Below are positions 73 through 62,480 of a stretch of DNA of 64,000 nucleotides, one piece after another (the first letter of the stretch is position 1; the number at the start of each line of letters is the position of its first letter). This DNA is from a virus (taxonomy: Duplodnaviria > Caudoviricetes), in IMG/VR virus record IMGVR_UViG_2854078061_000001, positions 44,150 to 108,149 of that record, one strand, 5' to 3'. The notes below the pieces were generated by a model. That model did no database searches. It was not told the DNA's origin and saw only the letters and a program-made list of their open reading frames with translations. The position numbers were made by a program, and so were the translations under genes.

Positions 73-1464
73 ATGAAGTTTTATGACACCTCCGCGCTTC
101 TTGATTTGGGAGCCGCCGCTTTCGAACCTGCCAGTGCAACAGCCTCTGGTGCAACAGAGCCGTTTCTGATTGCCGATATGACGCTGCACGAGCTGGAAGA
201 GATCAAGACAAGCGGCAAGAAGAGCGAAGAGATCCGCTATAAGGCCCGTACTGTAACCCGCCTGCTGGCCGAGCATCACGACGACAACACCTTTATGGTA
301 GTGGCAGTCCCCATGTCTTCCCTGTTCTATATCCTGGATGGCAAACCGATCAGCGATAACAACGACGCGACGATCATGGCAACCGCCCGCTGGTATCTGG
401 ACGAGATGAAGCGCAATCTGAATGACGCGATTGAAGCCGGACTCCCGGAAGCACAGCGACAGATCCAGGCCAACATTGATTCTTTCAGGTTCGTCACCAG
501 CGACCTAAGTTGCGCCAATATCGCCAGCGGCATTCTTGATCTGCCGATCGAGTTCTCCTATCCCGATGCAGCAGCAAGCGCCAATAATAACTACACTGGC
601 TAGACTGAAGTCACTCTTGATGAAGGCGGCGAGGAAGCCATGGCGATGGCATATCAAACCCACGATGAAGGCTATACATATCAGAATCTGTTTGACACTC
701 CAGTGAATGGCTATCTGATTGTTCGTGATCCAGACACAGTAGACGATGATATGCCGGCAGGCAATGCGGTAGGCTGGCTACGATGGAATGGCAAGAAATA
801 TGTACCACTCAAATACAAAAAGATCAGTAATCGCTTCACTGGCGACGTAAAACCACTCAATGACCAACAGAAGCTCGCATTTGATATGCTGCAGAACGAC
901 GATATTACAGTTAAAATGCTGGCTGGAACATTCGGCAGCGGCAAGACAATGCTTATGGTGTCCTCTGCCATTGATATGATCGAGAAGCACAAGGTTGAGA
1001 AGCTGATCTGGATTCGCAATAACATCGAAGTCAAGAATACCAAGGAGTTGGGTGCACTACCTGGCACTCTACTAGAGAAGCTCGGCGCTGCTTCTTTTGC
1101 TGGACCTCTGGCTGATCACTTGGGCGGCGAAGCTGGTTTGGAATACTGGATCAATAATGGGCAGGTAGAAGTAGCTCACCTTGGATTTATTCGTGGCCGC
1201 GACTACAAGAACGCAATTATTATGGTTTCAGAGGCTGAGAATCTGACCAAAGAGCATGTACAGCTGCTACTCGGCCGTGTTGGTGAAGGATCTATGCTGT
1301 GGCTTGATGGCGATCTGAAGCAGACTGACGAGGCCGTGTTTGAAAATAACAGCGGTATGCGTAAGGCAATTCAGTGTCTGGCTGGCAACCCGCACTTTGG
1401 ATATGTCTACCTGAACAAGACAGAACGCAGCGAGACCGCACAACTGGCTGACCTGTTAGACTAA
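73..1464 (+). CDS. phoH: PIN domain + PhoH-family ATPase (463 aa, read through TAG 601-603)
   Basis: N-terminal YDTSALL / NNDATI PIN motifs; GTFGSGKT Walker A, IRGRD, SEAENLT, DGDLKQTD PhoH motifs; ORFs 73-603 and 640-1464 are in frame and joined by one TAG. Confidence 0.85.
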
Positions 1465-1478
1465 GGGGGCACAGCAGA

Positions 1479-1760
1479 ATGATAGAAGTAAGAATAGACG
1501 GATTACGACCAATGGATTACATCTCTCCTACTGGCGACTGGAACTATGAAGCGATTGACGGTTTAGCGAAAGAGTTGTGTGACCGACTTCGAGAAGTTGA
1601 GACAGAACAGATACTGGAGGAATTCAAAAAATATATAGAAAACCAACATTCTGACAATATGGTTATATTAAACCAATTGCAAGCTCAATTGAATAATATA
1701 GCTACACACCGATATCTGATTACACCATTTAACAGAGGCATAGTAGCATGGGACAGATGA
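1479..1760 (+). CDS. Hypothetical protein
   Basis: 93-aa ORF with upstream AAGGGG RBS; ATGA overlap with next gene. Confidence 0.6.
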   Translation: MIEVRIDGLRPMDYISPTGDWNYEAIDGLAKELCDRLREVETEQILEEFKKYIENQHSDNMVILNQLQAQLNNIATHRYLITPFNRGIVAWDR

Positions 1761-2077
1761 GCAAAGCTAGTGAAGAAATATTTTATACAACCAATGAGTA
1801 TCTGACCTATAAGATGTCTCGATATTTTGACACTTATGTTCTGTTGCTTGGTTTAAAAGACAACTCAGGATTCTTCATGGATTTTGTCGGTGGAGCAGGA
1901 GTCCATTATCATCTATATAAGCAGACGGGACCTGCTGTATTTGCATTTATCGATGATAATTATAAGGTACTTCGTGGAGACGACGCAGAATGGATTACTA
2001 ATCTTGCTTTGAAAATATGCCAACAATATGACGAACAGCTGTTCAACGAACAATGTGTCTGTGAGACTTTGCTATAA
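1757..2077 (+). CDS. Hypothetical protein, C-terminal CVCETLL tag (array member 1)
   Basis: ATGA-coupled start; shared C-terminal motif. Confidence 0.7.
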   Translation: MSKASEEIFYTTNEYLTYKMSRYFDTYVLLLGLKDNSGFFMDFVGGAGVHYHLYKQTGPAVFAFIDDNYKVLRGDDAEWITNLALKICQQYDEQLFNEQCVCETLL

Positions 2078-2091
2078 CAGGAGAAGAAATC

Positions 2092-2511
2092 ATGCGCGTT
2101 TTATTCGTAAGGTCATCGATCTATGACACAGTATGCGACTGGTATGAACGCATGGATACTGTGCAAAAGCATCGCAAGGAGACCGCAATCTGTAAATCAC
2201 CCGAAGATTTTTGGGATATATTCAATAAAGATAAATTCGGTGCACAATATACGACATTCTATTTTGACGATAGGTTGGCGCTGACCGATACTTTTGAATT
2301 TTTCAAAGAGATCGCGCGGTTGTATGGTGAAGAGGATGCGAAATATATTTCAGAAAATAAAATGCGGCGGATCACCATGAACTATTTAATGAACAACAAT
2401 CAGTTTGACTTGTTCCAGCAGTTCTCCATCACACCCGAATGTCTGGACGATGTAATCCATGATGCTCTGGCTGATCAACAGTGTGAATGTGTGTGCAGAC
2501 CGCTATTGTAA
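2092..2511 (+). CDS. Hypothetical protein, C-terminal CVCRPLL tag (array member 2)
   Basis: AGGAG RBS; shared C-terminal motif. Confidence 0.75.
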   Translation: MRVLFVRSSIYDTVCDWYERMDTVQKHRKETAICKSPEDFWDIFNKDKFGAQYTTFYFDDRLALTDTFEFFKEIARLYGEEDAKYISENKMRRITMNYLMNNNQFDLFQQFSITPECLDDVIHDALADQQCECVCRPLL

Positions 2512-2525
2512 AGGAGAGGCAAAAT

Positions 2526-2990
2526 ATGGAAAGAATACTAACGCCACGAGGCGGTGGACGTACATATGCGATATGCGAATACGCTGTCAAGAACAATTGC
2601 AATATCTTGGTGCCGATGGGCGGGACGGCTATATTATGTGCACAGGACTATATCAAGGAAATCGCAAGGAATCTTGATATTCAATATTAGGGGTATAGGG
2701 TTGATCATCAATGCCTTATAGTAGATTTACAAAGCAGAGCTCGCGGAGAATACAGTATTCACGTGATAACAACTACTTGTCCTCCCGATAATTATCGTGG
2801 ATTGCACTTAGAGGATAAGCCACTTGTTGTTGATGATATTGACCGATGCTTTAAGTTCATGTGCTTCCCGAATGTGCGAATTGATGCCTGTTCTCTGATG
2901 ACATATGATCCGAGCGAGGTTGCGTTTACACCGCCAACTGCACCTCAAGAAGTGCAGCGGGATGAATGCGTGTGTGACAGCTTGGTATAA
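2526..2990 (+). CDS. Degenerate P-loop-like protein, C-terminal CVCDSLV tag (array member 3; 154 aa, TAG 2688-2690 read through)
   Basis: AAGGAGAGG RBS; PRGGGRT and LVVDDID resemble Walker A/B; frame open across the TAG. Confidence 0.7.
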
Positions 2991-3004
2991 CAGAGGTGCC
3001 AACA

Positions 3005-4200: not shown

Positions 4201-4476
4201 ATGAAAGAAAACGACTTTTCAAAACAGGATATTTATAATATTGGATTTGCCGTAGCTGATGCTGTGCGCGATTATGATGTAACTTACGAGGGTATCCTTG
4301 ACGCGATTCAGGTATATGCAGAATAGCAGGAACTGATCGGCAATGCATCGCTTTATGATACGTTGTGGATGGAAGATGGTACGCCCATGTCCCCTTCTTT
4401 GACACGATATTTATTTCACGAGATGTACTGCCCAGATGATTATGGTTATGATGAGGAGGACGGCGACGATGAGTGA
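4201..4476 (+). CDS. Hypothetical acidic protein (91 aa, TAG 4324-4326 read through)
   Basis: AAGGAGG RBS; MKENDFS...YAE*QELIG...DGDDE; fills an otherwise empty gap and overlaps the next start; absent from the ORF track. Confidence 0.7.
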
Positions 4477-8121: not shown

Positions 8122-8934
8122 ATGGCATATACAACTTTCTACTGTAATGAGAATATACTGCTCGATCATTGGCAGGACTATCACGAGTCAAATCTGATGC
8201 TGCGAAATCTGCTGAAGCGAACCTCCCTCTCCCCTATTGAATGCGCCACCATTTATTATGAGCGGATGAAAAATCCTGAGTCTGTCAGCTATGACCGTAG
8301 CCACTTGATCCAGACGTTCAGCAGAGGCCGTAAAAATAACGCGCCCATACTTGACGTACATCAAGTTGTGCTTTATCAGAAAGATCTGGACTATATCACA
8401 GAGGCGCGCCGAAAGTATCATATCAACTACGCACAATTACGTGTTCTGTTTGGGGTAATATTCTTCTGCCGGCTGTATGGAAGCGATACCTTTGCCTTGG
8501 ATACCGAGTTCAAGATGAAACGTTTTGGTGGCTGCTTTGAAGAGCAGACAGAGATCATGTATTGCGCTGGGAAGAACTAGGACGACGGCTATAATACAGT
8601 GCGGGGCATGAAAGAGATTTCTGACGACTATCACCTGCTGAACAGAACCGGCACTGACGACATTGGATGCTTATACCAGTACCAAAATTTTGCCCTTGAT
8701 AAGAATGACACGATTGCGTACACGTTCAATGTGACGCTTGAAAACAATCGGCTGAATTTAAGCGCCATAGTGCGAGAGCTATTTGACCCGAAGGAATGTT
8801 ATTGCATCGTGTGTGGCGAACAGTATCACTCAGAAAAGCCAAATGCCAGCAGATATTGCAAAGGATGTGCGGCAAAGAAAGAACAGGCACGTCTAGCGAA
8901 AAAGAATGCGAATCGAAACAAACGACCGAAATGA
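8122..8934 (+). CDS. Hypothetical protein with C-terminal zinc ribbon (270 aa, TAG 8578-8580 read through)
   Basis: AAGGAGG RBS; two in-frame ORFs joined at GKN*DDGY; CIVC...CKGC. Confidence 0.75.
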
Positions 8935-9216: not shown

Positions 9217-10401
9217 ATGGACGAATTTAAGAAAGCGGACGGCGAGACCTTTGATGAATATATGATGCGGATTGGTGAGGCATGCAGCGAACGTAAGCTG
9301 ACTTAGAATCAGGCAGCAGAACTGCTGAATGAAGCAACCGGCTCAGACTATGGCGAATGCAGATATCGCAAGACCTATAAGTCGTGGAAAGATGGTTATG
9401 ACTACGCTATTGATCACGCCAACGAAGAAACGATCCAGGATGAACTACAGCGACTGAAGATTGAAAAGATCAAATTACAAGATGAACGCAATGCAGCAAA
9501 CAAAGTGTATCGCGATGTTGCCCGTGCCGAATCCATCAAGGAATTGATTCTGAAGAACGTTGCTCCGTATAACCCTGACAATTTTCTGAATGTTGTGCAA
9601 TACGAAGGCAGCGGCCACGATGTGATTGTGTGCTTGTCTGATTTACATGCTGGCGCGGGTATTGATTCGGCGTGGAATAAGTTCAACAAGGATATCCTAA
9701 AGGCTCGGCTTGAGAGTTATGCTGCACAGGTGTTCAATATCGTAGCGCGACATACAGCCGAAAAGATTCATGTGCTGCTGTTGGGCGACCTGATCAATGG
9801 GCATATCCATGTTAATACCCGCGTGCAGAACAATGAAAACAGCATTGAGCAGGTTATGACGGCTGCAGAGCTGGTAAGTAATTTTGTTGCTACACTGTAC
9901 GAGGTATGCCAGCATATTGACGTGTATTCTGTGAGTGGCAATCATTCACGAGTATTCCCCAGCAAAGAGGATCAGGTAGCAGGTGACGAACTTGAAGCAC
10001 TGATTCCGTTCTATATGAAGGCACGACTGCAAAATCTGGCTGGCATTGATATTAAAACAGAGAAGCTCGATCCGACCTTTGGTGGCTTTAAGGCTAGGAA
10101 TAGTCTTGTGATGTACGCACATGGAGATAAGGACTCCCCTGCTAACGTCGTTGAGCACCTGACACTGATGGTGAAGCAGCCAATCGACATGGTGTTCCTT
10201 GGTCACCGCCACACAAACGGCATGACAACGGTGCATGGTACGAAGGTTATTGAGAGCGGCTGCGTTTGTGGCAGCGATTCCTATGCAATTGGACTGCGCA
10301 AAAATGATGTGCCGCAGCAGGCAGTGGCTGTAATCGATGACAGCGGCCTAGAATGTCTGTACGATGTCAAGCTGGAGAAGCCAGCAAAGATAGTAATTTA
10401 A
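9217..10401 (+). CDS. Calcineurin-like metallophosphoesterase with N-terminal helical domain (394 aa, TAG 9304-9306 read through)
   Basis: SDLH, LGD, SGNH, HGD, GHRH motifs; GAGGTG RBS at 9217; KLT*NQAAELLN. Confidence 0.85.
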
Positions 10402-10561: not shown

Positions 10562-10825
10562 ATGGAAGAAAAATATCACAAAGATTTAGGAGGCGATTAC
10601 TTCTACTGCTATTCCAGACGGACAGCACTGTTTGTTCGCGCTATGGGAATTTTTTACGAAGAGATTGGAGAGCACCCGGTAACTGGCTCTGTATATACAA
10701 AATTCCGCAAGACGAAAAAACTGAATGAAGTTTTAAAACTATAGGATCAGATCAAATATCGCTTCGATGATATGATGGACGATGGAACGGTGGTGATTGG
10801 CTATGGCCAGAGTTGCCGCAGATAA
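10562..10825 (+). CDS. Small hypothetical protein (87 aa if TAG 10742-10744 is read through, otherwise 60 aa)
   Basis: AAGGAGG upstream; LKL*DQIKY; read-through here is less certain than at other sites. Confidence 0.6.
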
Positions 10826-11801
10826 GAAACCGCCTCGTATCAAGGTTCCGCCCTCTTGGAGTGGTGGCAAATGTATGTGTTGCGGAAAAATCTATGACGT
10901 GCGCAAAGGTAATTTCTCAAAAACGAAGAGTCAATGGTTTATTGGTAACGACGGATACCTCCCGTGGTGCAATGAGTGCCGTGAGAAGATGTTTGAGTTT
11001 TATGTTAAGAAGTATAACGATGAAGATGAAGCGATTGACCGTCTGGCTATGATGTTCGATACCTATGTAAATGATAAATTGCTTGACGCATCAGAACATT
11101 CTGTGGCATCTGCTTTAAAAATTAACACCTATATGGGACGGCTTAATATACGTCAGTATGCAGATAAATCTTATGACGATGTGATCGACCAGAAGAAAAA
11201 AGACGCTTTGGCTGCCGGTGATACAAAGGGGACAAAGGTCACTCTGAAGATGAGAAAATTCTGGGGTACTGGTCTGGATGAAAAAGATTATTTATTCCTT
11301 GATGAGCACTATCAAAATCTTATCACTAGACATGAATGTAAGACGGCCGCACAAGAAATTCTGTTCAAACGCATTGCAAAGGCAGAACTTAATTGCGATA
11401 AGGCTGATGCCACTGGCGACACAAAGAAAATAAAAGAAGCAAACGACAACCTGCAGAACCTGATGGGGTCCGCTCAGATCAAACCGAATCAGACGAACGA
11501 TAACGCATTGGCTGAAACGAATACTTTTGGCACGCTGATTCAGAAATAGGAAGAGGAAGAGCCGATTCCAGAACCGTCGCCAGAGTGGCAGGACGTTGAT
11601 GGTATCGGTAAGTATTTTAGAGTGTGGGTGCTGGGTACGTTGCTTAAGATGTTCAACTTGAAGAATCCATATCAAGACGAATTTGACGAAGAGTTTGAAC
11701 GATATACTGCTCATAAACCAGAGACAAATGAGGACGATGACACAGATACTAGCCTCCGCGAAACTATTTTCGGTATTGGCGAAGGCGGTGGTTCCGCATG
11801 A
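10803..11801 (+). CDS. Zinc-finger protein upstream of terminase, putative small terminase (YonG-like; TAG 11547-11549 read through)
   Basis: CMCC...CNEC; GTLIQK*EEEEPIPE; read-through frame ends in ATGA overlap with the terminase start. Confidence 0.75.
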
Positions 11802-13555
11802 GTAAAGAGAAATTAACAGATAAGGAAGTAGCGAATACAAAATCAGAAAAAATAATGAACGCAGTTGCCATGAGGGCATCATTCTATAGAGCGAATCCTC
11901 AGCGGTTTGCAAAAGACTATTTAAACCTGACATTGAAGCCATTCCAAGAGCTACTATTGTTTTTGATGGTGAGATGCACCGGCTTCTGCTTCATTGCTGC
12001 TCGCGGCCTTGGTAAGTCATTTCTAACCGCAGTTTTCTGTGTGATTACATGTATTCTATGGCCTGGTTCCAAGGTTTGTATCGCCTGTAAAGTAAGAAGC
12101 CAATCTATCAGTATTTTGGATGAAAAGATAATGAAGGAGATCTACCCCAACAGTCCCCTTCTACGCTCTGAAATCAAAAAGGTCGATATCAACAATCAGA
12201 AAGCAGAGATTATATTTAAGAACGGCAGCTATATCAAAGTAGTCACTGCCACAGATAGTAGTCGTGGTAGTCGAGCTACACTTCTCATCTGTGATGAATA
12301 TAGATTGCTTTCTAAAGATGTTATAGATTTGATTTTGAAGAAGTTCCTGAATATTGTTCGTCATCCTGGATATTTGGACAAGCCACAATATGCACATCTT
12401 GCAGAGCGAAACAAAGAATTCTACCTAAGTTCCGCTTGGTTCCAAAACCATTGGAGCTATGAAAAATGTCAGGACTACTTTGTAAATATGATCGACTTTA
12501 ATAAGAAATATTTCTGCGTATCCTTCCCGTATCAAATGTCAATCAAGAGCGGCTTGCTGTTGAAAGAAGCTGTAGAGGACGAAATGAGTGAATCAAGTTT
12601 TTCTGATTTGACATTTGCAATGGAGAATGAATGTAAGTGGCTTGGTGCTACTGAGGGTGGGTTATTCCAATTTGATGACATCAACAAAACGCGCGTCATT
12701 GAAAAGGCGTTCTACGCACCGAATCTTTTACTTAATCAAGCTGCTATGGACGTGCCGAAAAAGAAAAATGGCGAAGTACGAATTCTCACCGCCGATATTG
12801 CATTGATGAGCAGTCGCAAAAACGACAACGATGCAACCAGTATCTTCTTGAATTGTATGCTGCCAAATAAATCAGGGCGCTATACTAGCAATTTTGTCTA
12901 TTCAGAGAACATTGAGGGTATGAGTGCGCAAGATCAGGCACTAAAACTGCGACGGTATTTCGATTATTTCAACTGTGATTATATCGGGGTTGACTGTAGA
13001 GGTGTTGGATTGCCTCTGGTTGACCTGTTGATGCGCGATATGTATGACCCAGAAACAGGCGAAACATATCCTGCGATTAGCTGCTGTAACAATCAAGAAA
13101 TCGCATCTCGCTGTTCTGACAAAAATGCCAAAAAGGTCATCTAGGCAATTATGGGCAGCTCTCAGTTTAACAGTGATGTAGCCATTGGATTACGCAGCGG
13201 TTTCCAGCAAGGACGTATCCATCTGCTTCAGAGTGAGTACGGATGTGAAGACCAGTTGCGCAAAATCTATAAAGGCTATGATAAAATGTCGCCTACTGAA
13301 CGAGCCGCACTACAGATGCCATATATCAATACCGGGCTTGCTGTAAACGAACTTGTAAATCTGGGCTACGAAACCGTAAATAACGTTATCAAAGTCAAGG
13401 AGAAATCCGGCTGCCGTAAAGACCGCTACTCTTCCCTGTCTTACAACTATTACATTGCGCAGCAAGTTGAACGAAGCATGGAGAAGAAGAATAAAAAGCC
13501 AACTTCGCTCACGTTTAACTTTAGAGCGCCTGTATTAAAGAAGGGAGGACTGTAA
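11798..13555 (+). CDS. Terminase large subunit (585 aa, TAG 13142-13144 read through)
   Basis: AARGLGKS Walker A, LICDEYR Walker B, nuclease motifs ADIAL / VDCRGVG / RKDRYSS; the last nuclease motif lies downstream of the TAG. Confidence 0.92.
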
Positions 13556-15078
13556 TGGCTGAAGATAAAATGCAGAAAAAGGTCCGCGTAACAAATGCCA
13601 AAGATGGCAAGACCTCTTATGTAACATATCAGGATCTTGTCAATGGCGTTTATGCGAACCTGTCACATATCGGTATCCGTAATCTGGCATCGAATACCGA
13701 CACAAATCCGACATATACAAAATATACGAAAGATCAGATCGTCACCTATCTTGGCAACCCCGCCAACTATGAGAAGCAGCTGCGAAATATGAGTAAATAT
13801 CTATTCAATATTTCAAACTACTATCGCCGACTGATTCAGTATTTTGCGAATATGTCTACATATTCTTACACGATTTCTCCGTATGGACTTGATCGCTCTA
13901 AGACAATTAACGCCAATAAATTTAAGAAGGCGTATTATTCTGCTGTAACAGCAGTTGAGCTGATGAATATCCCGCACGAAGCCACGAAGATACTGACAAT
14001 TGCATTCCGCGATGACGTTTACTATGGCTATGCGTGGGAGACAAATGACAGTTTTGCTTTTCAAAATCTTGATGCAGACTATTGTAAAATAAGCAGCATT
14101 GAGGACGGCGTTTATAACTTTGCTTTTGATTTTTCTTATTTTGATTCCAACAAAGACAAGCTGCCCAACTATCCGCCAGAGTTTGAGACGATGTATAACC
14201 AATATAAGGCTGACTCGCAGAACTACAAGTGGCAGGAGCTGGACAGTTCCAAGTCCATTTGCATCAAAGTAAACGAGCACGATTATATCCCCATTCCCCC
14301 GTTTGTGAGTTTGTTTAGTGCGCTTGCCGATATTGAAGACTACCGTGCCATCAGTAAAAACGCAAGTGAGACCAATAACTATAAGGCGCTGGCAATGGAG
14401 ATCCCAGTGAATGATACTGACGGCTCTTTCCTGATCGACTATGATACAGCAAAAGAGTTCTATGACATGATGAGTAATGTACTGCCGTCGAATATTGGCG
14501 CAATTCTTACTCCCATGAAAATCAGCAGCTAGAACTTTGAAAAGAGCGGCGTGAACAGTGACTCTAAAGAGGTCGCAAATGCTGAGGCCGCATTCTTTAC
14601 AAGCGCTGGCGTGAATAAAAATCTGTTCGGCGGTGGCGAAGATCCTTCTGCTACTACCCTGCAGCTGTGTACTGTGAATGACCAGGAGATCGTGTTTGCA
14701 GTGATGCGACAGTTGGAACGCTGGATCAATCGCAAGCTGAAGAGCGTTTCCAGTTCTTATAGGTTCCGCCTAAACTTTCTACCAGTTACTCATTATAACG
14801 TGACTGAGATGCATGAAAGATATCTCAAGGATGCCACCTATGGTATGCCGACTCGAACCGCAGCTCTTGCAACTACTGGTTATGCGGGTAGCGATTATGA
14901 GAACATGACTTATCTTGAAAATGAAATCTTGAGACTTAGTGCTGGTGAAACACCGCTCAAGAGCTCCAATACTCAGTCCGGTTCCGCCGGGGATGAAGGT
15001 GGCCGCCCAACAAATGCAAGTAAGGGCGAGGGCCTGTCTGATGCTGGCAATGTAAGCGCCGATAGACAGGAGGCATAA
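13555..15078 (+). CDS. Portal protein (507 aa, TAG 14530-14532 read through)
   Basis: Position after terminase; size; C-terminal SSNTQSG...GGRP motif typical of SPbeta-like portals. Confidence 0.85.
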
Positions 15079-19597: not shown

Positions 19598-20614
19598 ATG
19601 ACAAGATCTCAATATAGAGCCATGCTGAAACAGGATGGAGAGACGCAGCGCGACAGGGTGGTCAATAAGGCACTCCATGATACGCGCTTTTTAGCGCCAG
19701 TCAATCCTTCTTATAAAGAAGTAACGATAGATGACGTACCCCGCTGGGTAAATATTATATCATCTACTGTTACAAACCAGAAAATATTCCGCACAAGACC
19801 TGGTGAGGATTTTGAGATCGGCAGCATTATGTACTGGGGTAAGAGCCACTGGCTGATTACAGAACGTGATGCAGACGATGAGATTACCGTGCGCGGCCGC
19901 ATTCAGATCTGCCAGAAACAAATCGTGTGGCAGGATGACCAGACAAAAAAGATCGTATCTCTATGGGCAACTGTGGAAAAGCCGTATTACTCCAACCTGA
20001 GTGAGAATAAGGTAATGAGTTATTCAACCCGTGAATTCCGCATTCAAACCCCGTTCGACGAGTATTCTGCCCGTCTGAACATTGGAAAACGGCTGATGTT
20101 GGAGATCGTCAATGGAGAACCAAAGACCTATCGAATCACGTCGATTGACCAGATGACTGGCCGAATTGACTATGATAATGACCAGATCGGGTTCCTTTCG
20201 TTTAACGTTGAACAGGATCTTTACAACGCAGAAACAGACAATGTAGAGAAAATGATCTGCAATTATGTGCCGGAAGATGCTTCCGATAACGTGGAAATCA
20301 CCTATCCTGACGACAACACAGTAGACGACAGAGTGCTTTCGATAGAGTTTACGGGCGAACCGTCCATCCCAACGGGCGGATTTGGCAAGCTGTTTACTGC
20401 AAAAATCGATGGCGAAGTGTACGACGGCGCAGAATAGACGCTTACCGGCGATTGTACTCCTGCTGGAGTATGTTTCAAAGGCGGTAATACGACTACGACA
20501 GGTGCAAAGTGTAAGATCACTTGTGTGGATGATTCTAAGCTGATTGGACAAGTCGTGGTACTGACGGTTAAAGCAGCCGGCCTTACCGAAAAGATCGAAT
20601 TGGAGGTGATCTGA
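19598..20614 (+). CDS. Head closure protein with C-terminal Ig-like domain (338 aa, TAG 20435-20437 read through)
   Basis: Read-through ends 1 nt before the next ATG and contains its RBS; DGAE*TLT fits an Ig-fold W strand. Confidence 0.75.
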
Positions 20615-20615: not shown

Positions 20616-21113
20616 ATGAATCTCGATGAGATCGGGGTATTCAAAAATCGGGTCGTTTCCAAGTTGATCAATGACGAAAATGTCCTTGATGTCCTATTGG
20701 GCAATACAGATAATATCGACGATCCCGAAACTCTTCTGCTTGGTAAGAATGGGTCGGGTGAAGGTGGATGCGTGTTTAAGTATGAGTATGTTCCAGATAC
20801 GCAGGAAAACTCAAAAACGTTTTTGTGTGTTGAGGTCGTGCCAGAACAAACCAGCGGTGATTCTATTACGATGATGACCATTTACGTATTTGCATATTGC
20901 AGTAAAAACCTTATGCAGACATATCATCGGAAAGGACAGGCTGGGACACGCATTGATATTTTGGCCAGTGATATTGATAAGCTTCTGAATGGAAACAAAG
21001 AATTTGGAATTGGACCGCTTGAATAGGCTGGAAGCAGCATCTATAAGCCAGCGCAGTGCTATTACGGACGAATGCTTGTTTATCAGGTCGGCTCTTTTAG
21101 GAGGGCTCGCTGA
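20616..21113 (+). CDS. Tail completion/terminator-like protein (165 aa, TAG 21024-21026 read through)
   Basis: RIDIL...FGIG motif; read-through frame ends in TGATG overlap with next gene. Confidence 0.75.
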
Positions 21114-35500: not shown

Positions 35501-38500
35501 AATCCTTTCGTATTTGGATAAAAATGTTCACTCTTCTACAATTACATTTGAACAGCTTACGGATGCGATTAAAGGATATGGTTCTGCTCTTTCTGATGCT
35601 AAAGCTGTAACAGATGACTTTAAGGGTGTTTGGGACAACGGAAAAGTAGTCAAGGAAAAGACAAAAAAGAGCCGTACTGGTGCTCTGGATTATGAAGGCA
35701 CTGAAGCTCAAAGTGCCGCGCTGCAATCCATTAAAAAGTATAGTGAATATGATCCGGATCTGATCAATAAAGCCTACAATAAAGATACTGGTAAAATCGA
35801 CCTAAGTGGTGATGTGTTAAAGGATGCAGTCGTTAAATCTTTGGAACAACAGGCAAAAGCCGCCAGAGATGAGAACAACGCGGCTGCCAATGCAATTGCT
35901 GATAGTTATGAAACTGCTGCCAATAATATCAAGAACAACGTTATTTCTGTTCAAGACTACTTCGACGGACTGGGTTCTACGGTTGAAGAGTTTAGCTCCA
36001 AGATCGACGATATGCAGAACGCATGGACCGATTTGAGCGATGTCACAAACGAGTATAACACTTACGGCGGTTTGAGCATTGACAGTATTCAGAAACTGCT
36101 TACAATGTCTCCCGAGTATCTGCAGTTCCTCAAATTGGAGGGCAACCAGCTCGTCTTTAATAAAGAAGCGATGCTGGCAAAAACCAAGGCCGACATTCTG
36201 GCAAAGGCTGCAGAGCTCGAACTAAAAGATGAGACCAAAGATCAAGCAGAGATTCTACGTGCGTTGGCGGATTCTCTTGATAAGGGCGCAGATTCGATGG
36301 AGGGCATGGGCAAATCGGCTGACAAGCTGAAGACCCTGATGTCCCAACTGAACACTGTTTTGAATTCTTTTATCGGTGTTTTTGATGACTTGAACGACAA
36401 ACAGTCCAACGACCTCAAGATTCAGGGTGAAGCTTGGATCGATGTTATTGACAAGCGTATTGACGCACTCAATGAAGAAAACGATGCACAGGAGCGATCA
36501 ATCGAACTGGCAAAACTTCAGGATGAATACGAGCGTGCAAAGGCCAATAAGACTGTTCATGTATATGGCGGCAGAGGTCAAGGTTTTGTATGGAAAGCAG
36601 ATGAAAATGCCGTTCGTGAAGCTGGGAAAAACCTATCTGACAAGCAGCGTGAATATAAGAAGAAAGATGAAATTGACAAGCTGGAAAAGCTCAAAGATAA
36701 AGTTCAGGAAACCAATAATCTTATTGGCACCAGCTGGGATGATTATCAGAAGAAGCTGAAATACACAGCCGAGTTCGAGGCTATGACATTTGAGCAGATG
36801 GAAGGTCACTATGACGGTTTCAAGAGTAGTGTCCTTAACAATATGCAGGCCATTCAGGGCGCGACAAACGTCAAGAATGTTATCACTGATATTTCCAATT
36901 TGATCTCTACTTTGGAGACACTGGCGAATATTTTGAACATTCTTAATGGCGGAAGTGGTGACGGCGGCGGAGTCTTTGGCTTCATCAACCAAATCAAGAA
37001 CATGTTCACTGGCGAAAACGGTGATTTTGATCTGGGTGGTGGCTTTAAGAAGATGTTCGATGGAGCTGCTAAGGTGGTTTCTGACGGTTGGAACTGGATC
37101 ACTGGTAAGAACAGGGCTGGTTCTGCCGCACTAAAATCAGACACCACTGCGACATTGGATATCCTTGGCAACACAATAAAGGTGAATACCGGCGATATTC
37201 AGCGTGTATCTGGTGGATTCTTTGAGAGACTAGTTGGTGCTGCGAAAGACAATCTTGGCAGTATCGGTAAGTTCTTCTCAGGTGCATAGACATCTATCTC
37301 TGAGAAAACCGGATTGATGTTTACTGATATTGGCTCGTTCTTCACAGAAGGATTTGGCCTGTTGAACAGTCAGACAGGACTTGGTCTTGGTGGCATTGTT
37401 GAGACCGTCGGAAGTATGTTTGGCCCAATTGCGGCTGGAGCACAGTCTATCGGTAGTGCCATCTCGTCTGGCGTTGTAAGCTTCTTCCCTTCTATCTTCG
37501 CCGGACTTGGTACTCTGGTGACTAGCGTTGGCAGTGCAATGGCCGCTATGATGCAAGCGATTGCTGCTGCTCTTTCTTCCATTCCTATCGCTGGTTGGAT
37601 TGCTGCCGCCGCAGCTGTTGCAGGTGCAGTTGCTCTAATTGCTACGATTGCTTCGATTGCAAGTAATGTTTCCAATACACAGGTTGATGAACCTACTCCC
37701 GCATTCCAAGCAAAGAAATATGCAAAGGGTACTCGTGGCGTTAAGAAGAGCCAGATTGCAAACGTTGATGAAAAGGGCGAAGAGCTGATTGTTCGTAACC
37801 CAGACCAGGGACGCATGACCTACCTTGAAAAGGGCGACGGTGTTATTCCTGCAAAGGAAACCGACAACCTGATGGCGATTGGCGCTGACCCCGAGGGCTG
37901 GCTGGCAAAGGGCTTGGCCGAAGTGACTGGTAGTGCCGCAGCCGGTGCCGGTATGAGTGCCCAAGGTCCGAGCGCTCAGTTGAGTGGTGCTGCAGCTGCC
38001 GCAGCCGCTGGCGTTGGTTCGATTTTCAAGAGCGAGTATGACGAGATCCTTGGCGATACAACTGAGTTTATGTCTGGACTCTCTGACATCTTCAAGAAGA
38101 GTGATAATCCGATTATTGCCGCCGTTCAAAGCATGATTTATATGGCCACTAAGACTGTATATCGTATGTCTACGGTCGGTAAGATTAACTCTTCTAAGAC
38201 AGTGACAGAATCCACCAGCAACACAAAGAAGGCGACCCAGAGCCAAATTTCGTCTATGACGAGCAACTTTGAGTCTAGCTGGAAATCTGTGGCTGGCGAG
38301 CTCGGTCTGGACACAAAGGATATTGAAGAAACCAGCAAAAAGATGTCTGAGAAGATGAATGAGCTGGTGAACAACACCTTTGATGCGCTGAACGAAAACA
38401 CCGGCCTTAGCGCCGAGCAGGTTGAAGATGTCACCAACACGATGTTCGATTCGCTGCAAAAGATTTATACCAGCGGATGGAACAGCCTTGCTTCCACTTC

Positions 38501-42666: not shown

Positions 42667-45143
42667 CATATCTTCCGACTGACGCAGACCTGGCGCTATT
42701 GAACAATCATTCGTCTAATATTTACTGCCGCATTGATATGCTGAACAAAGATTTTATTACAATTGATAGTTTGGAAGGTCTTGTGATCGATGGTTCTATT
42801 TCTATCGACTCAGAATCTGACGTGCGGCGAACCTTTAATGTGACCTTGTATCTGGGTAAGAAGAGCGGCATTTCAAGCCTGACGGAAGAGGATTGGATCA
42901 GTAAAAATGTGCGTGTATTCATTGGTCTGTCAGGAAGAGGAATGTCGAAAATCAGTGCTTCAAAGAGTATTGACGAGATGATCAGGGAAAATGCGGATTA
43001 TCAGCTCGCTGCGACGAATTATGATGATTTGATTCAGGACATCACAAATAGAGGCTATGCAAAATACGGCAATATCGACAATCTGAATCGAGATGTGCTA
43101 GTGTGGACACGAGCCAATATCTCAAAGTATCATACGTTCTTTGACCAGATCAATGACGGCACGCCACCGGATGACCCAGCTGAAGCAGAAGAATGGTACA
43201 CCAAACTTGGTGATTACTCTACAGTTTTGGGAAGTGATGACCCAATTTGTCAAGATGGCCCTTATATCGCATTTACACCGATGCTGCAGACCAAAGACGG
43301 ACTTGTGCCGCTTGTGAAGGATGATATCTGGGCTTATCTGGATGCTGTGGCAACAAAAGCGAAGTCAATGAGCGGCGGTCTCTCCCCTGCCAATATCTTT
43401 GAGGTAGATAAATCAGGCATCGATAGTTTCGTGTATGGTAACAAAATGCATGTCCATGGGATGATTGCTGCTGTTGAAGGTATGGTTCTGAACGGAGTTA
43501 CGCTTGGTAAGGTGGATGTTTCTGCTATTGCCGGTTAGAGTGAGGACGAATTAAGGGAGACCTACGGAAAAACCAGTGTGTTTGCAGGACATTCCATGCA
43601 CGACATTCAAGCAGAAGTGATTGACACAAAGACCGCGTTGAATGAGTTGTATAACGACCTGTTCCTTAGCTATTCCAATTCAGCTGATAATTCTTATGTT
43701 AATGGTGTAAAAATCTATTGGTACAACGAGAGGTGCTATACATTTACATCCAATGGCTTTACATATAGCGCAACAGAAAACACTGTGCAGGCCAGCTGTG
43801 TTGACTTGGTTTCTCGTACCAACGGAGACTTGGGTGGACAGCTGGTTGGTGGTACACATCGCATTGAGAAAGGCACTCGTATCGGTGATGCCATCTGGAC
43901 GGTGATGAGAGATGAGACGGAGTTTAAGAAATATTCTATCGACTATTGGAGCCGCACTGTTCCACATGACTTGGATTATGATACTGGCTCGACTGTTTGG
44001 GATATTCTCTCAGAATTGCGTGACCTGTATTATCCGTTTGAGATGTATTTTGACGATGATGTGTTTGTATGCAAGGAAATCCCCAGTGGATTTGACGACC
44101 CGCCTGTACTTGACCCGGAAGTATTCGAGAAGCTTGTGACAAACGATGGCGAATCGGCCACGGTGGATTATTCCGCTGTTCGAAACTGTGTCGAAGTGTT
44201 TGGTGCGACGATTGAAGCGGATGGAGCTGCAACTGTAAAAGGATGGTCTGGAACAAATAAAACAATCAACCTTGTATTGAACGCAACCGAATCAACATGG
44301 AAAAGTGAAACGAAAGTATCTTTTGTGGCTCCTGCAAATGTTGAAGCTGCCAAGACGGACAAAAATGGCAACGTAACAAGTGGCGCTATGACAGTTGTGT
44401 TGACATTTACATGGAAGTACAAGGATAAAGACGGCAATGAACAAGTTGGCTCTGAGACAAAGACCAGCACGCTGTATCGTTCTTTGACTGATGCCAATGG
44501 TTCAGATGTCATTCAAGACCCCGGATGTATTAAGGCTACAAAGTATTATGTTCTTCAGTGGAATCCGAATACTGGCCGCATCTACTTTTTGGGCCAACAG
44601 CAGAGTCACGCTATGGCAAAACTGGTGGACGAAATCCCAGCTACCAAAGAGATCGAAGCTCAAAAGGCAGAAGATAACTGCGACAATATGGCTTTTATCT
44701 GTGTGAATGACCCGAACAATATTGACGACCTGTACAATGCACGGTTATCCATTGAAAAGATCGGTCGTAGAACTGAGATTCTATCGGGTGGAGACTACGA
44801 GAATTACACCACGGATGACGCAGCCATGGAAGTTTGTCAATACGAACTGTGGAAGCGTGCCCGCCTGACGGACGGCCTGAGTGTGACCACGCGACTGGTT
44901 CCGTGGCTCGACGTGAATGAAAAGATTCAGTATGCTGCCAAATATCTGGGCGGTAAGACCCCCGTGGATTGGATCATCAAGAGCATCTCTATGAATCTTG
45001 GCGAAGGCACAATGTCACTTTCTTTGAGCCGCTATTACCCCTATTACACTTATATCGTAAACAACAAATATACGTTCTATCAGGACAATTTGTTTGATAA
45101 ATATTTTCCCGAATTAACTGCCACTACGGCAGATGAACAATAA
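42663..45143 (+). CDS. Baseplate hub/tail tip protein (826 aa, TAG 43536-43538 read through)
   Basis: SISIDSESDVRRT; VPHDL...TVWDIL.ELRDLY; VPWLDVNEKI. Confidence 0.8.
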
Positions 45144-54659: not shown

Positions 54660-56084
54660 ATGGCAAATTTATCATTACGCGAGGTCGCACAGTCTCAGCT
54701 GGATCAAGCTCCTGTGATTGACGGCCAACTGATCGTATGTACTGATACTGGAAGCACTTATCGAGATATCGGCACAAGACGAATTCAAATCAGCAAAGAC
54801 TTGGAGATCGTAAGCTCGCTTCCGCTGGCTCCTTTGTCTAATAAGATTTACTACCTGCGTCCAGACAGCTTGTATGTTTATAGTAGCGATGACTGGATTC
54901 TTTTGAACCCATCAAAATTCACACTGGAAGCCGACAAAAACGCAGTCAATGGCGAAGTTAACATCAATTTAATCCTGAATGGTACAGCGCAGGATAAAAT
55001 CAAAATCGCTGGCGGTGGTGTGACTACAGTGACGACTGGCGAGACAGGCGATATCACGATTGATACCCCGCACCCGGATGAACTGCTGGCTGCACTGACG
55101 AATGAAGAGATCGACGCGATCACTGGCGGTATGGTTGATGATAGCGGCAATCCTCTGCCTACGCCGCAGGTTGTGGTGGATGCGACACTGACTGTATCTG
55201 GACATGCTGCTGATGCTAAAGCTGTTGGTGATGCTCTGACTGGGAAAGCGAGTGCAGAACATAACCACGATGACCGCTATTATACAGAAGATGAAATCAA
55301 TGTAAAGCTATTAAAGAAAAGCGATGATGGTCACACTCATGATGAGCGGTACTACCAGCAGAATGAGATCGATGAGAAGCTGAAGGTAAAGGCAAATACA
55401 ATCAATATCCACACACTAACTATTCCGACTACGAGTTAGCTTACTGACGATACGGTGGACCGATATTCAAAGTATATTGACCTCGACATCGACGGGATCA
55501 CCTCAAAGGATGTTATTTCTATCAGCGTGACACCGGCCAGTGCAAAAGTGGCCTCTTACGCCCAGTTTGCAAACCCGGAGACCTTTGATGGATATGTGCG
55601 TCTGAGAGCTGTATCAGTTCCAACAACTGAAATTACAGCTCAGTATTATATCGTGCAGGGCGGCGGACAAACAGATAGCGGTAGTGGTACGGTTGTTGAG
55701 GGATATACCAAGGCACAGGTGGACAATAAACTAAGTGAAAAAGTGTCATACAAAGATGTTTTATCACTTGAAGAGATCTCAACAAATGAAAATACTGCTA
55801 AAAAAATCGCTTCTGCAGAAGCATTAAAAAACAAAATCGGATGTGTAAGCCTTCCTATAAGTGGAGTAAAATTAAAAAATAAAACTGGAGAATGTAATTG
55901 GACAGTTCTTGATATTTCATTACCAGATGGGGCAATCGCGATAGGTCACGCAATGACAGGCGCTTGGCAGGAAGGTGCTAGCTACGAATTGTTAGATAGA
56001 AATAAATTAACCATTTCGAGCTCCTTGGTAACCGAACTACCAACAAATCGTGGAGATATGCTGATATACTATTACATTCCATAA
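54660..56084 (+). CDS. Tail fibre protein (474 aa, TAG 55437-55439 read through)
   Basis: AADAKAVGD, HNHDDRYY / HTHDERYY repeats; LTIPTTS*LTD. Confidence 0.75.
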
Positions 56085-57230: not shown

Positions 57231-58655
57231 ATGAACGATGAAAAAAAAAGTTGGCTAGACAGAGCGGGTACGGTTCACCTCTGGAAAACGATTGAGGCTA
57301 TGCTCGGTACAAAGGTAGATAAAATCGAAGGGTTCGGCTTATCCAGCAACGACTATACAACAGAAGAAAAGAAGAAACTTGCTAGTTTAAGCGACCCTAA
57401 TGTAGCCACCACTGAAAATAATGGTTTGATGAGCTCGGCTGATAAAGCAAAGCTGGATGGTATTGAAGCTGGAGCTAATAATTATACTCACCCGGTATAC
57501 GAAGCAAAACAGGCCGGATTATATCGCATCAGTGTTGATAATACAGGTCATGTGGCAACAGCAGATAAAATGACGAGTGAAGAGTTGACTGCAGAGGGTG
57601 TCTCCCCCGCCGATCATACGCATGACTTGGGCGTATTGGTAGATACACTGGAGACGAGTGCTGACGCTGTTGAAGATGCTGACACTGTTATGGTTGGCGC
57701 TATAGTTACGAGTGATGATGGCAGTGCGACTACGAAGTACACCCGCAGGCCACTGGCTGCTTTATGGAACTGGATCAAAGCGAAGGCAGATACGTTGTAT
57801 GCTGCTGTTGGACATACACACAAGGTAAACGAGCTCGAAAATTATGATACACATGTGTATAACCCAACTTTAGATCGTACCAAGCGGACTGTTTTGGCTG
57901 CACCTACAGGAACTGATGGTCCTGCCACATTCAGAGCATTGGATAAGAATGATGTGGGGTTGGGAAATGTGGATAATGTAGCCGCACTACCGTTAACTGG
58001 TGGAACGATGAGCGGAAGAATTGTAAGGAATACGCCTTCTTCATGGATAGATGCTCGTAATACCACCGCTGTGTATCAAGCCGCTCCGTCTGATGGTTGT
58101 TATAAATCAGTTGTTGGACAGGGAACTCAAAATGGTGTTTAGACAATTGGAGCACTCAGTGGGCAAGAATATTTGTATTTTGAATATACTTCTGATTCAG
58201 ATTATGCAAGTGGAAATAATGTCGCAACAAGTACCATTTTGGAACCACGAGGCGGCACTATTATTACAACTGCAAATATCGGAGAACAGACGATTGGCAA
58301 TGCAAACGCAGCGTCATATATTTCAAATCAAGGAAATCAAACAGCAATAAATTCACCTCTTGACGTAAAAGGACTTTCTGTATATCAAGTATATAACAAT
58401 GGATATCCAACATCTTACGGTAATGTTTTAAGCATTGGCGGCACTGGTGACGGTCAGATCCTTGCTGGTTGGAGCGGCGGCAATAACGGTATTGAGCGTT
58501 TGTATTATCGTAACCGGCGTGATATGTGTTCAACGTAGTCGGGATGGAGGACTGTGGCTTTTACAACAGATATCACACAAATTATCTCTCAAACCAGTGA
58601 CCCGGGTGCCGGAAGTAGTCTTGCGACTGGCACAGTGCTTTTGGTATATGCGTAA
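57231..58655 (+). CDS. Tail fibre protein (474 aa, TAGs 58140-58142 and 58536-58538 read through)
   Basis: GLSSNDYT, GLMSSADKAKLDGI, NNYTHP, DVGLGNVDN, LPLTGGTMSG; NGV*TIG and ST*SGWRTVAF; ends at the next RBS. Confidence 0.8.
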
Positions 58656-59518: not shown

Positions 59519-60211
59519 ATGGAAGAAACAATGATCCGCCCCGGGTACACAACGACGACCGAGACCGACGGCACCCCGGCAGATTACAGCGCAATCGAGG
59601 CTGCGGTGAACGCACACAACCAAAATGCACAGCCCGGGGAAGCTTACTAGGGCATTCGCCTATGCGGGACGGAGTATGAAGTGTATGAATACGGTGAAGT
59701 GCCCCAGCCGCCGACCACTGAAGAACTTTTTGAACAGCTAAAGCTCTATAAAGAAACAAAAATTAAAGAAAGTAAGATGTGTCTTTCTGAATATCTTGCA
59801 TCTCATCCAATTCAATGGACTGATGGCAAATATTACAGTGTCACCAGTGAGAAGCAGGCTTTGCTTACAAGCAACCTTGCCCTGTACCAAATCTCTACAG
59901 CTGCCGGACAGCCTTTTAAACTGACATGGAATTCTACCGGCGATGAATGTGTGGAGTGGACTTATGACGATCTGGCAGCTCTGGCACTGGCGATTGGTAT
60001 GTATGTGAAGCCCTTTGTCTCTCATCAGCAGGAATTGGAGGTTGACATCAAAGCATGTATGACAAGTGAAGAGGTAGATGCTATCGCTATCGTATATGGT
60101 AGTGATGATGATTCTACTGAGAATCCTGAAAGTCCTGATGAATCCGGGTCTACAGACGAAACGACCAATGCAGAAATAAAGGAGGACGCTAATGAGCAAC
60201 AAACTTCGTGA
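59519..60211 (+). CDS. Fibre assembly-like protein, DUF4376-like (230 aa, TAG 59648-59650 read through)
   Basis: AAAGGAG RBS at 59519; GEAY*GIR; LTWNSTG. Confidence 0.7.
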
Positions 60212-60750: not shown

Positions 60751-60755
60751 CTCTC

Positions 60756-60784
60756 ACTATATCACGTTGATAGGAATTTGTCAA
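60756..60784 (-). promoter_or_regulatory. SigA promoter (minus strand)
   Basis: TTGACA-N17-TATAGT with extended TG. Confidence 0.75.
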
Positions 60785-60799
60785 TTGAAAGGAGGAATT

Positions 60800-60955
60800 A
60801 TGGCGCAGGAAGTCTTAAAGCCGCTGTTATTAGACGAAACAGGCAAAGAAATCGTGATAGCACTGAACGCTATTGTTACACAGCTGACCGAGATCAATGA
60901 AACACTGAAAGCCAAAAATACAGACAGTGGTACGAATGGTGGTGAGAAGACATGA
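60800..60955 (+). CDS. Small hypothetical protein (51 aa)
   Basis: AAAGGAGG RBS before ATG 60800. Confidence 0.7.
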   Translation: MAQEVLKPLLLDETGKEIVIALNAIVTQLTEINETLKAKNTDSGTNGGEKT

Positions 60956-61455
60956 TAGGAAGTTTGAATGCCGCACCTCACGTCTATTCTTTTACCATAC
61001 AGCAGTTGTAGACCATGTTGCTGAGTATCTGTGGTGGCATCACTGCTATTTCAGCCGCTATCGCTGTTATCATCAAGGCAATCAATCATGCGAAAGCACC
61101 AGATGACAAACAGAACGAGCGGCTGAATGCCCACGATGCAGAACTTGAGAAGATCAATAGAAAACTAGGTGCAGATAAAGACAGGCTCGACCTGTTTCAA
61201 TCCAAGCTGGTCTCATTAGAAGAGCACCAGAAAGAAAACAGTATCACGCTGGAAGTACATGACCGTAAAATTCTCGAATCAGAACAGCGTATCAGTCACA
61301 GCGAGCAAGGCAATAATGTCACCATGAAGGCTCTGCTTGCACTCCTCAGTCACGGCATCGACGGCAACGCGATCGAGCCAATGAAGGAGGCCAAGGCTGC
61401 ACTTGAGAACTATTTGATCGATGGTCAGAACAACACAAAGAATATTACGAACTAA
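60952..61455 (+). CDS. Holin-like/XhlA-like TM plus coiled-coil protein (167 aa, TAG 61009-61011 read through)
   Basis: ATGA overlap and GGTGGTGA RBS at 60952, none at 61015; ALLSHGIDGN. Confidence 0.7.
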
Positions 61456-61499
61456 CCCGAGACTGCGTGTCCCGGGCTTTTTTATTTTGGAGGTTTATT

Positions 61500-61820
61500 A
61501 TGATGGATATTATCAATGAGCTGGTTTCTGTTATCGTCCGCCTGGTTATTGCTGGCGCTGGTACTGCCTTTATGGCCTATGGTATCCCCTATCTGAAGAA
61601 AATCGGTGTGTACAAGCTAGTACAGATTGCTGTTCGTGCTGCAGAGAAGCTGGGCGCAACCGGCGCTATCGAAAAAGCCGACAAGAAGAAATACGTTATG
61701 GAAGCTCTGGAGCATCTGGGTGTGAAGATCACTCCGACTATTGAGACCATGATTGAGGCTGCTGTCAAAGAGATGGACATCCAGAACGATAAAATCAAGG
61801 ACGAGCTCAAAAAGAATTGA
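61500..61820 (+). CDS. Holin, LL-H family
   Basis: One TM helix; AVRAAEKL, KKKYV, IEAAVKEM. Confidence 0.85.
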   Translation: MMDIINELVSVIVRLVIAGAGTAFMAYGIPYLKKIGVYKLVQIAVRAAEKLGATGAIEKADKKKYVMEALEHLGVKITPTIETMIEAAVKEMDIQNDKIKDELKKN

Positions 61821-61832
61821 AGGTGTGATGAA

Positions 61833-62480
61833 ATGGGTGTTATTACATACTCTATGAAGAAGGACTAGAACAAAAAGGTGTCGGCTCATTTTTCCGTCTA
61901 TGAGTTCGCCTGCTCCGATAAGAGTGATACAGTTCTAGTCGATAGTCAGCTGATTGAAGTGCTAGAACAGATCCGCGCTCACTTCGGCGCTCCTGTCCAT
62001 ATCAACTCTGGGTATCGTACTCCTGCCTATAACATCTCCATCGGTGGAAGCCCTCGTAGCCAGCATTGTAAAGGAACTGCCGCTGATATCTGGATCAAGG
62101 GCGTTGACCCGATTCGGATCGCACTGTATGTATCTTCCCTGCCCTACTTTGCCAAGAGTGGTGGTATTGGATATTATAGCCGTGCTGTGCTTACGAGTGG
62201 CTTTGTTCATGTTGATGTGCGCACCACACGCAGCCGCTGGATCAGTAAATCCGGCACGAAATATATTAGCGTAGCCAATCTTATGCCGACTATCAGACAG
62301 GGTGCGAAAGACGCTATGAATGGTGCTTCTTATGCTGTAACTGTACTACAACGGCATCTTGGTGTTAAAGCTGATGGCATTTTTGGCGTGAATACCAAGG
62401 CGAAGCTGATTGAGTATCAGAAAGGACATGGGCTGGCTGCAGATGGCATCTGTGGGCCTGCTACATGGGGTTCGTTTTGA
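61833..62480 (+). CDS. Endolysin: peptidase M15A plus peptidoglycan-binding domain (215 aa, TAG 61866-61868 read through)
   Basis: INSGYRT, SQH..G.AADI, FVHVDVR; ADGIFG / ADGICGPATW; AAGGTG RBS before ATG 61833. Confidence 0.88.

Follow-up and report, generated by a model that had tools for sequence, protein, structure and literature searches.

Which amino acid, if any, does a phage insert at a stop codon that recurs inside its late genes? The question is raised by TAG in a 64,000-nucleotide stretch of viral DNA (Duplodnaviria; Caudoviricetes; IMG/VR record IMGVR_UViG_2854078061_000001), which we call the window. It spans bases 44,150-108,149 of one viral contig of 108,149 bp (genome G000, contig C1) and corresponds to the rightward arm of the genome of a large tailed phage. 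Judged by its sequence relatives, this is an SPbeta-related gut phage of ~145 kb, of which the 108-kb contig is an incomplete part. A first-pass annotation of the window had read its in-frame TAGs as Trp, not Gln, from the local peptide context. From comparison with related phages, we find it very probable that TAG is a sense codon for Trp in the rightward late arm of this lineage, decoded by a phage tRNA(CUA) derived from tRNA-Trp.

TAG to Gln and TGA to Trp are the sole phage recodings observed by Borges et al. (preprint, 10.1101/2021.08.26.457843), and annotation tools implement tables 15 and 4 (PMC11210395). The first-pass annotation had drawn its claim of novelty from this state of knowledge. 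The claim agrees with the phage surveys, but Trp-isotype suppressor tRNAs had already been noted by Kienbeck et al. 2024 (PMC10879173), in whose study 19.4% of 180 phage suppressor tRNAs scored as Trp isotype (the “rarely reported code 32”). Those authors concluded code 15, and recoding was not shown in proteins. Our literature search with phrases for TAG- or UAG-to-Trp returned Balanophora plastid papers alone, and Kienbeck et al. is the sole hint of TAG to Trp in phages in the literature searched.

TAG is an internal codon in the window

All 22 in-frame TAGs reported by the first-pass annotation are present at the positions that it gave. Each is in frame with open reading frames (ORFs) on both sides, and all lie in rightward genes, 20 genes in all. 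Gene calling with TAG as a sense codon gives 61 + strand genes in 1-62716, covering 96% of that stretch. These genes terminate in TAA (35) or TGA (26) and never in TAG, and the single - strand gene at the window end has TGA as its stop. The annotation had seen no TAA or TGA breaks, and phase 0 of the called genes is indeed free of both. TAG occurs inside the called genes 24 times in phase 0, 152 times in phase 1 and 133 times in phase 2. Two of the phase-0 TAGs are outside real coding sequence, one in an N-terminal over-extension (21098) and one in a small ORF (30669), and 22 remain. This small ORF (30543-30713) is probably non-coding. It is among the small ORFs that lie between the two large tape-measure ORFs (24683-30259 and 32574-39602), which are ~2.3 kb apart (30224-32574).

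Changing TAG from stop to sense moves the coding density of the window only from 0.933 to 0.968, so callers that choose a genetic code by density may miss the recoding or call code 15.

In the null reading, the TAGs are ordinary stops between separate genes, and several of them (601, 13142, 61009, 61866) do have an in-frame ATG, GTG or TTG a few codons 3'. We reject this reading because G003, a whole relative that uses the standard code, has each split pair as one ORF with Trp at the TAG site. Its orthologues of the terminase (585 aa), putative portal (506 aa), PhoH, holin-like and endolysin proteins, among others, are single uninterrupted ORFs in which Trp stands exactly where the window has TAG. 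In the window's RNA polymerase, the match to PF05183 begins upstream of the first ATG after TAG 5197.

Related phages have Trp at most of the TAG columns

The window was compared with ~290 related IMG/VR loci, collected in four scans, and with the whole relatives G001, G003, G004 and G005. Five recoded whole genomes (G001, G002, G004, G009 and G010), four of them at least 98% complete, stand beside the unrecoded G003. The relatives are up to 140-150 kb long and have 12-19 tRNAs in two clusters. In-frame TAGs in relatives were counted by anchoring to homologous genes; greedy ORF calling on both strands with TAG as sense over-counts them, owing to long antisense frames.

The first-pass annotation had asked for a tally of homologues at the TAG columns, and in this tally Trp dominates. 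TGG is found in relatives at 17 of the 22 window columns (Table 1), and in 16 of these it is the sole alternative codon. The reverse test, which is independent of the window's own TAGs, gives the same picture: some relative has an in-frame TAG at 81 columns, and the window residue there is W in 61, Q in 7, Y in 4, S in 3 and L in 2. Where that residue is not Trp, other relatives have TGG at several of the columns. The window proteins have 237 TGG and 719 Gln codons; per codon, TAG is found ~30 times more often at Trp than at Gln columns. The terminase offers the deepest single column, residue 449, at which 119 database homologues (51-92% identity) have W in 113 cases, Y in 4, F in 1 and Q in 1. 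TAG thus aligns with Trp, and TAA and TGA stay stops, which is the assignment of NCBI table 32.

Under NCBI table 15, the TAGs would instead be Gln, and a Trp-derived tRNA(CUA) would be mischarged with Gln, like su+7 in E. coli. This would agree with the published phage surveys, which give Gln alone for TAG (Borges et al., 10.1101/2021.08.26.457843), and with the seven columns that pair TAG with Gln. The lone Q at terminase column 449 also has this sense, but it comes from the gene call that the collection itself made for this window (P0049, 11798-13555); P0049 reads TAG as Q, so the call was made under table 15, and it reflects the code of that pipeline and not data. If TAG were Gln, a change from CAG to TAG would be silent and common, yet Gln makes up only 7 of the 81 columns, each in one or two contigs, despite threefold more Gln codons. 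Moreover, 17 window TAGs stand at columns that are otherwise TGG, including the near-invariant Trp of the terminase, and replacement of Trp by Gln at ~20 sites in essential proteins is implausible. We therefore regard Gln as a very unlikely reading of TAG here; the alignment of TAG with Gln that table 15 implies is not what the columns hold.

Could the TAGs be errors of assembly or sequencing, or nonsense mutations in a defective phage population? Some relatives do have singleton TAGs at non-Trp columns, and seven columns have an in-frame TAA (six) or TGA (one), as noise or defective variants might. This origin is nonetheless hardly credible for the TAGs of the window. Dozens of contigs, drawn from many IMG/VR samples, share these TAGs, and over window positions 8000-15000 an independent Logan contig of the likely source run matches without a difference. 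TAG alone is affected, only at Trp columns and only in genomes with a suppressor tRNA.

Table 1. In-frame TAG codons of the window and the codons that relatives have at the same alignment columns (counts solely from alignments with conserved flanks)
TAG	Strand	Gene and place of the TAG	Codons in relatives	Remarks
601..603	+	PIN-PhoH protein (1-1464), between PIN and PhoH domains	TGG 3, TAG 1	G003 has Trp in an uninterrupted ORF
2688..2690	+	small protein (2487-2990)	TAG 19, TAT 11, few Cys/Ile/Ser; no TGG	variable column
4324..4326	+	small protein (4201-4476)	TAG 34, TGG 30, no other codon	
5197..5199	+	YonO-like RNA polymerase (5038-7581), residue 54	TAG 21, Tyr codons 25, Asp codons 26	variable column
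8578..8580	+	protein 8122-8934	TAG 45, TGG 29	
9304..9306	+	metallophosphatase (9217-10401; Pfam)	TAG 45, TGG 29	
10742..10744	+	small protein (10562-10825)	TAG 45, TGG 31	
11547..11549	+	protein 10797-11801, directly 5' of terminase gene	TAG 44, TGG 33	
13142..13144	+	terminase large subunit (11798-13555, 585 aa), residue 449	TAG 36, TGG 41	
14530..14532	+	putative portal (13555-15078), residue 326	TGG 66, TAG 9	
20435..20437	+	structural-module protein (19574-20614)	TGG 33, TAG 7	
21024..21026	+	protein 20616-21113	TGG 54, TAG 22	
28685..28687	+	tape-measure gene, first part (24683-30259)	TAG 6, TGG 1	PF10145 domain lies 3' of the TAG
32973..32975	+	large tail or tape-measure ORF (32574-39602)	TGG 45, TAG 9	
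37287..37289	+	large tail or tape-measure ORF (32574-39602)	TAG in 68/68 aligned relatives	residue uninformative
43536..43538	+	tail protein (42663-45143, C-terminal DUF5048)	TAG 124, TGG 4, few other codons	other codons come from ~35% identity alignments
55437..55439	+	protein 54654-56084	TAG 50, TGG 11	
58140..58142	+	protein 57231-58655	TAG in both of 2 aligned relatives	residue uninformative
58536..58538	+	protein 57231-58655, second TAG	TAG 2, GCA 3	neither for nor against Trp
59648..59650	+	DUF4376 protein (59519-60211)	TGG 16, TAG 1	
61009..61011	+	holin-like protein (60952-61455), near N end	TAG 41, TGG 1	G003 orthologue extends upstream and has Trp here
61866..61868	+	M15 endolysin (61833-62480; Pfam), residue 12	TAG 33, TGG 12	G003 has Trp at residue 12

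A tRNA(CUA) of tRNA-Trp type accompanies TAG use

A tRNA-Trp(CUA) encoded elsewhere in the genome had been among the candidate mechanisms of the first-pass annotation, and complete relatives have such a gene at a site just beyond the left end of the contig. It lies between tRNA-Ser(UGA) and tRNA-Lys(UUU) in G001, G002, G004, G009 and G010, and the same syntenic site has tRNA-Trp(CCA) in G003 and no tRNA in G005. In G001 the gene is at C1 30,962-31,038. The contig aligns to G001 with 96% DNA identity at an offset of ~35.4 kb, so the site would be ~4.4 kb past the left end of the contig.

On the contig itself, no tRNA(CUA) was found by ARAGORN (at default and lowered thresholds, with introns allowed) or by Rfam tRNA scans. 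Its seven tRNAs lie at C1 25.7-28.8 kb and none has the anticodon CUA. The seventh, a tRNA-like gene outside the window (C1 26,287-26,355, - strand; L002:6287-6355), has well-formed acceptor, D and T arms, and its CCA end is encoded. Its anticodon arm is of 13 nt (a 3-bp stem and the loop GGCUGAA); it scores 49 bits with Rfam, and ARAGORN calls it Gln(CUG) at the lowered threshold alone. With this shortened anticodon arm, it is not a suppressor.

The tRNA(CUA) genes of the relatives are ordinary class I cloverleaves with a G1-U72 pair and a D arm resembling the one in the phage tRNA-Trp. All 14 variants have the discriminator G73, an encoded CCA end and the anticodon loop CUCUAAA, where tRNA-Trp has CUCCAAA. 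When the anticodon was masked, the most similar non-suppressor tRNA was tRNA-Trp for four of five variants. By these sequence features (G73, Trp-type anticodon loop and arm, class I cloverleaf), the tRNA(CUA) is a tRNA-Trp with C35 changed to U. A pyrrolysine system was considered and rejected, as the tRNA has a normal cloverleaf with Trp-type features and the TAG columns hold Trp, although no search was aimed at pyl genes; ARAGORN labels any CUA tRNA “Pyl”.

The loci around the terminase are of two kinds: some have no TAG at Trp columns, and the others have 3-11. The exact tRNA(CUA) pattern occurs in 43 IMG/VR contigs, as 12 sequence variants. Among contigs of at least ~136 kb, 13 recoded ones match this pattern, and the recoded G009 and G010 have a divergent CUA tRNA at the syntenic site, found by the Rfam scan and ARAGORN. 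Three further recoded genomes, G006-G008, gave no match to the 77-base G001 tRNA(CUA) DNA query, an insensitive probe that also missed G009 and G010. The nine contigs of at least ~136 kb without TAG use have no match to the pattern, and for G003 and G005 the absence is borne out by their full tRNA sets. The tRNA(CUA) thus accompanies TAG use in every near-complete recoded relative with checkable tRNAs.

This co-occurrence bears on a second mechanism put forward by the first-pass annotation, editing of the mRNA from A to I, by which UAG would be read like UGG, as at the amber/W site of hepatitis delta virus (HDV). TAG and TGG differ by exactly the A-to-G change that editing would make, and the tRNA(CUA) is not on the contig. 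However, a dedicated tRNA(CUA) is present wherever TAG use could be checked in near-complete relatives and missing where TAG is unused, which leaves editing with nothing to explain. We know of no site-specific mRNA A-to-I editing at such a scale in bacteria, and consider this mechanism extremely improbable.

Three further features were seen alongside. G002 keeps both tRNA(CUA) and tRNA-Trp(CCA), ~200 nt apart (L083:720-794 and L083:1003-1078), with clearly different acceptor stems. The cluster of the suppressor also has a conserved tRNA-like gene to which ARAGORN gives the two-letter anticodon “at” (G001 C1 32,490-32,562; G009 C1 110,720-110,792). On the contig of this phage, outside the window, C1 39,311-39,377 (- strand; L002:19311-19377) is a full-length match to the Pistol ribozyme, at 66.5 bits against a gathering score of 34.5.

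TAG is used in one arm and spread over its genes

TAG use differs sharply between the two arms of the genome. Of the columns with conserved flanks at which G003 has Trp, G001 has TAG at none of 126 in the left arm and at 13 of 111 in the right (P = 3.5e-5), and G000 and G004 have the same pattern. The tRNA(CUA) gene itself lies in the leftward arm, whose genes use no in-frame TAG. A single stop codon that recurs in frame in conserved genes, is unused as a terminator and is concentrated in late genes is the profile of phage stop-codon reassignment of the type described by Borges et al.

Within the window, 22 of 257 Trp positions are written TAG (~8.5%, about one in twelve). They are spread more evenly than chance would have it: 20 genes bear a TAG, compared with 15.1 +/- 1.8 expected under random placement over Trp positions (P = 0.007). 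No TAG is found in the largest gene, which has 38 Trp. The even spread gives modest support to selection for the gating of individual genes. The base after the codon is a purine for 19 of 22 TAGs and for 154 of 235 TGGs, a trend (P = 0.057).

Neither a TrpRS-type synthetase (PF00579) nor a release factor (PF00472) was found in G001, G003, G004, G009 or G010, in searches in which control genomes matched. Inhibition of RF1, which the first-pass annotation had offered as a possible companion of the suppressor, finds no support in the relatives, in which no RF1 inhibitor was found either. Host RF1 should then compete at TAG, as it would if decoding were ambiguous or partial, the tRNA(CUA) being charged only in part with Trp or many ribosomes being ended by RF1, with mixed products and TAG acting mainly as a throttle. 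The spread of TAGs over genes and the purine trend would also suit such a throttle. Yet some TAGs stand near the start of proteins that are essential and single-copy (RNA polymerase residue 54, endolysin residue 12), and a product truncated there would serve no purpose. Partial decoding, which differs from full decoding as Trp in degree alone, seems to us unlikely.

In the terminase tree, recoded and standard-code loci are cleanly separated, in a set of loci that leaves aside an ~80% identity clade holding both states. TAG is a rare terminator in unrecoded relatives (9 of 195 and 11 of 200 ORFs in crude calls, several being spurious), and this rarity may have eased the change of code. In some relatives the terminase gene has an insertion of ~254-267 nt near position 12006-12020 (matches of 1598-1603 nt as opposed to 1344; L041, L046, L047, L056 and others). 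A contig from an RNA library has 267 extra letters at the same place. The insertion is probably an intron, since in several relatives its length cannot be divided by three.

The phage and its gene content

Pfam matches identify the window proteins as a PIN-PhoH protein, a YonO-like single-subunit RNA polymerase (PF05183), a metallophosphatase, a terminase large subunit, a protein with a tape-measure domain (PF10145) and an M15 endolysin with a peptidoglycan-binding domain. The names that the first-pass annotation had given to the RNA polymerase, the terminase, the tape measure and the endolysin are upheld by these matches; its “portal” was named from position alone, and we keep it as putative. 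With YonF of Bacillus phage SPbeta the terminase shares 40% identity, and its named matches, among those listed or tallied by name, are phages with Bacillota hosts; these two facts are the sole pointer to the host. The closest GenBank record is an unannotated 14-kb fragment from human faeces labelled “Bacteriophage sp.”, and the likely source runs of the contig are labelled mouse gut metagenome. Small word shares were also seen in wastewater, in bovine gut and in a “root” RNA library. Two terminase scans of GTDB genome contigs, one with the single protein and one with an alignment, found no prophage relative.

Discussion

In the mechanism that we propose, the recoded arm would comprise the genes for PhoH, the YonO-like RNA polymerase, packaging, head, tail and lysis, and its decoder would be the phage tRNA(CUA) that arose from tRNA-Trp by the change of C35 to U. 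Because no phage TrpRS or release factor was found, host TrpRS presumably charges this tRNA with Trp, and the charged tRNA would compete with host RF1. With about one TAG per gene across the late genes, the full length of late proteins would depend on expression of the tRNA(CUA), which could thereby serve as a gate. We lean, with some reserve, towards a wider proposal: that this is a third natural phage code, amber to Trp, which works with one anticodon-mutated tRNA-Trp and host TrpRS and without a phage synthetase or release factor, and in which selection places about one TAG in each late gene, gating packaging, virion and lysis functions through one tRNA.

Several points weigh against decoding of TAG as Trp. 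Our assignment of the residue comes from evolutionary comparison, and five window columns (2688, 5197, 58536, 37287 and 58140) lack a Trp signal. A few singleton TAGs in relatives fall at Gln or Tyr columns, each in one or two contigs, as would be expected if a new TAG were a missense change to Trp and not a stop. The tRNA(CUA) is not on the contig, and its presence in this genome is extrapolated from relatives that are 96-100% identical in the terminase region. The similarity of the tRNA(CUA) to tRNA-Trp is only narrowly above that to the next isotype (0.74 versus 0.71).

The biochemical objection comes from E. coli. There su+7 (supU), a laboratory amber suppressor, is a tRNA-Trp with the anticodon CUA, and it inserts mainly Gln, as GlnRS recognises U35. 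TrpRS, for its part, uses C35 as an identity element, and efficient charging of the phage tRNA with Trp is therefore not a given. The phage tRNA(CUA) is like su+7 in its single anticodon change and its tRNA-Trp body with G73, and unlike it in that the evolutionary record here is of Trp. Many Bacillota, though not all, are without GlnRS; that the host of this phage is one of them is speculation. Of 29 phage tRNA(CUA), moreover, 28 inserted Gln in E. coli extract (10.1101/2025.10.30.685624), a result that favours Gln at TAG as well.

Recoding of TAG as Trp by this lineage can be set beside other natural codes. NCBI table 32, the code of Balanophoraceae plastids, likewise assigns TAG to Trp and keeps TAA and TGA as stops; it belongs to an extremely AT-rich, reduced plastid genome in which reassignment is genome-wide, neither a virus nor a switch between early and late genes. 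The code 15 gut phages (crAss-like, Lak, Garnet and others; 10.1101/2021.08.26.457843) resemble this family in having one in-frame stop in conserved genes that is not a terminator, a suppressor tRNA with the anticodon CUA (here in the relatives), recoding confined to late, structural and lysis genes with the tRNA and early genes left in the standard code, and a gut habitat. They differ in the amino acid, Gln there and Trp here, and in that TAG is sparse here (22 in 64 kb) and coding density barely shifts. With the TGA-to-Trp (code 4) phages Jade and Agate (10.1101/2021.08.26.457843), our family shares a suppressor derived from tRNA-Trp, the change of a stop to Trp and the recoding of lysis and late genes. 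Those phages have a tRNA(UCA), TrpRS and RF1, whereas here the codon is TAG, the change is in the middle anticodon base (C35 to U) and not at the wobble position, and no phage TrpRS or release factor was found. The theta-ribozyme phages of Kienbeck et al. (PMC10879173) likewise have Trp-isotype CUA suppressors, known there by isotype prediction alone; unlike theirs, the tRNA(CUA) of this family has no adjoining ribozyme in Rfam scans and encodes its own CCA end.

If the wider proposal is true, a bacterial TrpRS accepts U35 well enough in vivo, and some of the phages now listed under “code 15” have been translated wrongly, with Gln in place of conserved Trp. Gene callers that offer tables 4, 11 and 15 alone split such genes or misplace Gln at conserved Trp, and the public call for this genome does the latter. 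The middle anticodon base of a tRNA-Trp could then be changed, in some host, without loss of identity, and the tRNAs of these phages would be candidate natural Trp amber suppressors for code expansion in Gram-positive hosts. A lineage that reads TAG as Trp would widen the natural range of genetic codes beyond the TAG-to-Gln and TGA-to-Trp codes of phages. With recoded and unrecoded relatives side by side, and with tRNA-Trp(CCA) or tRNA(CUA) at one locus, the family is a natural experiment on the onset of a code change and on the gating of late genes.

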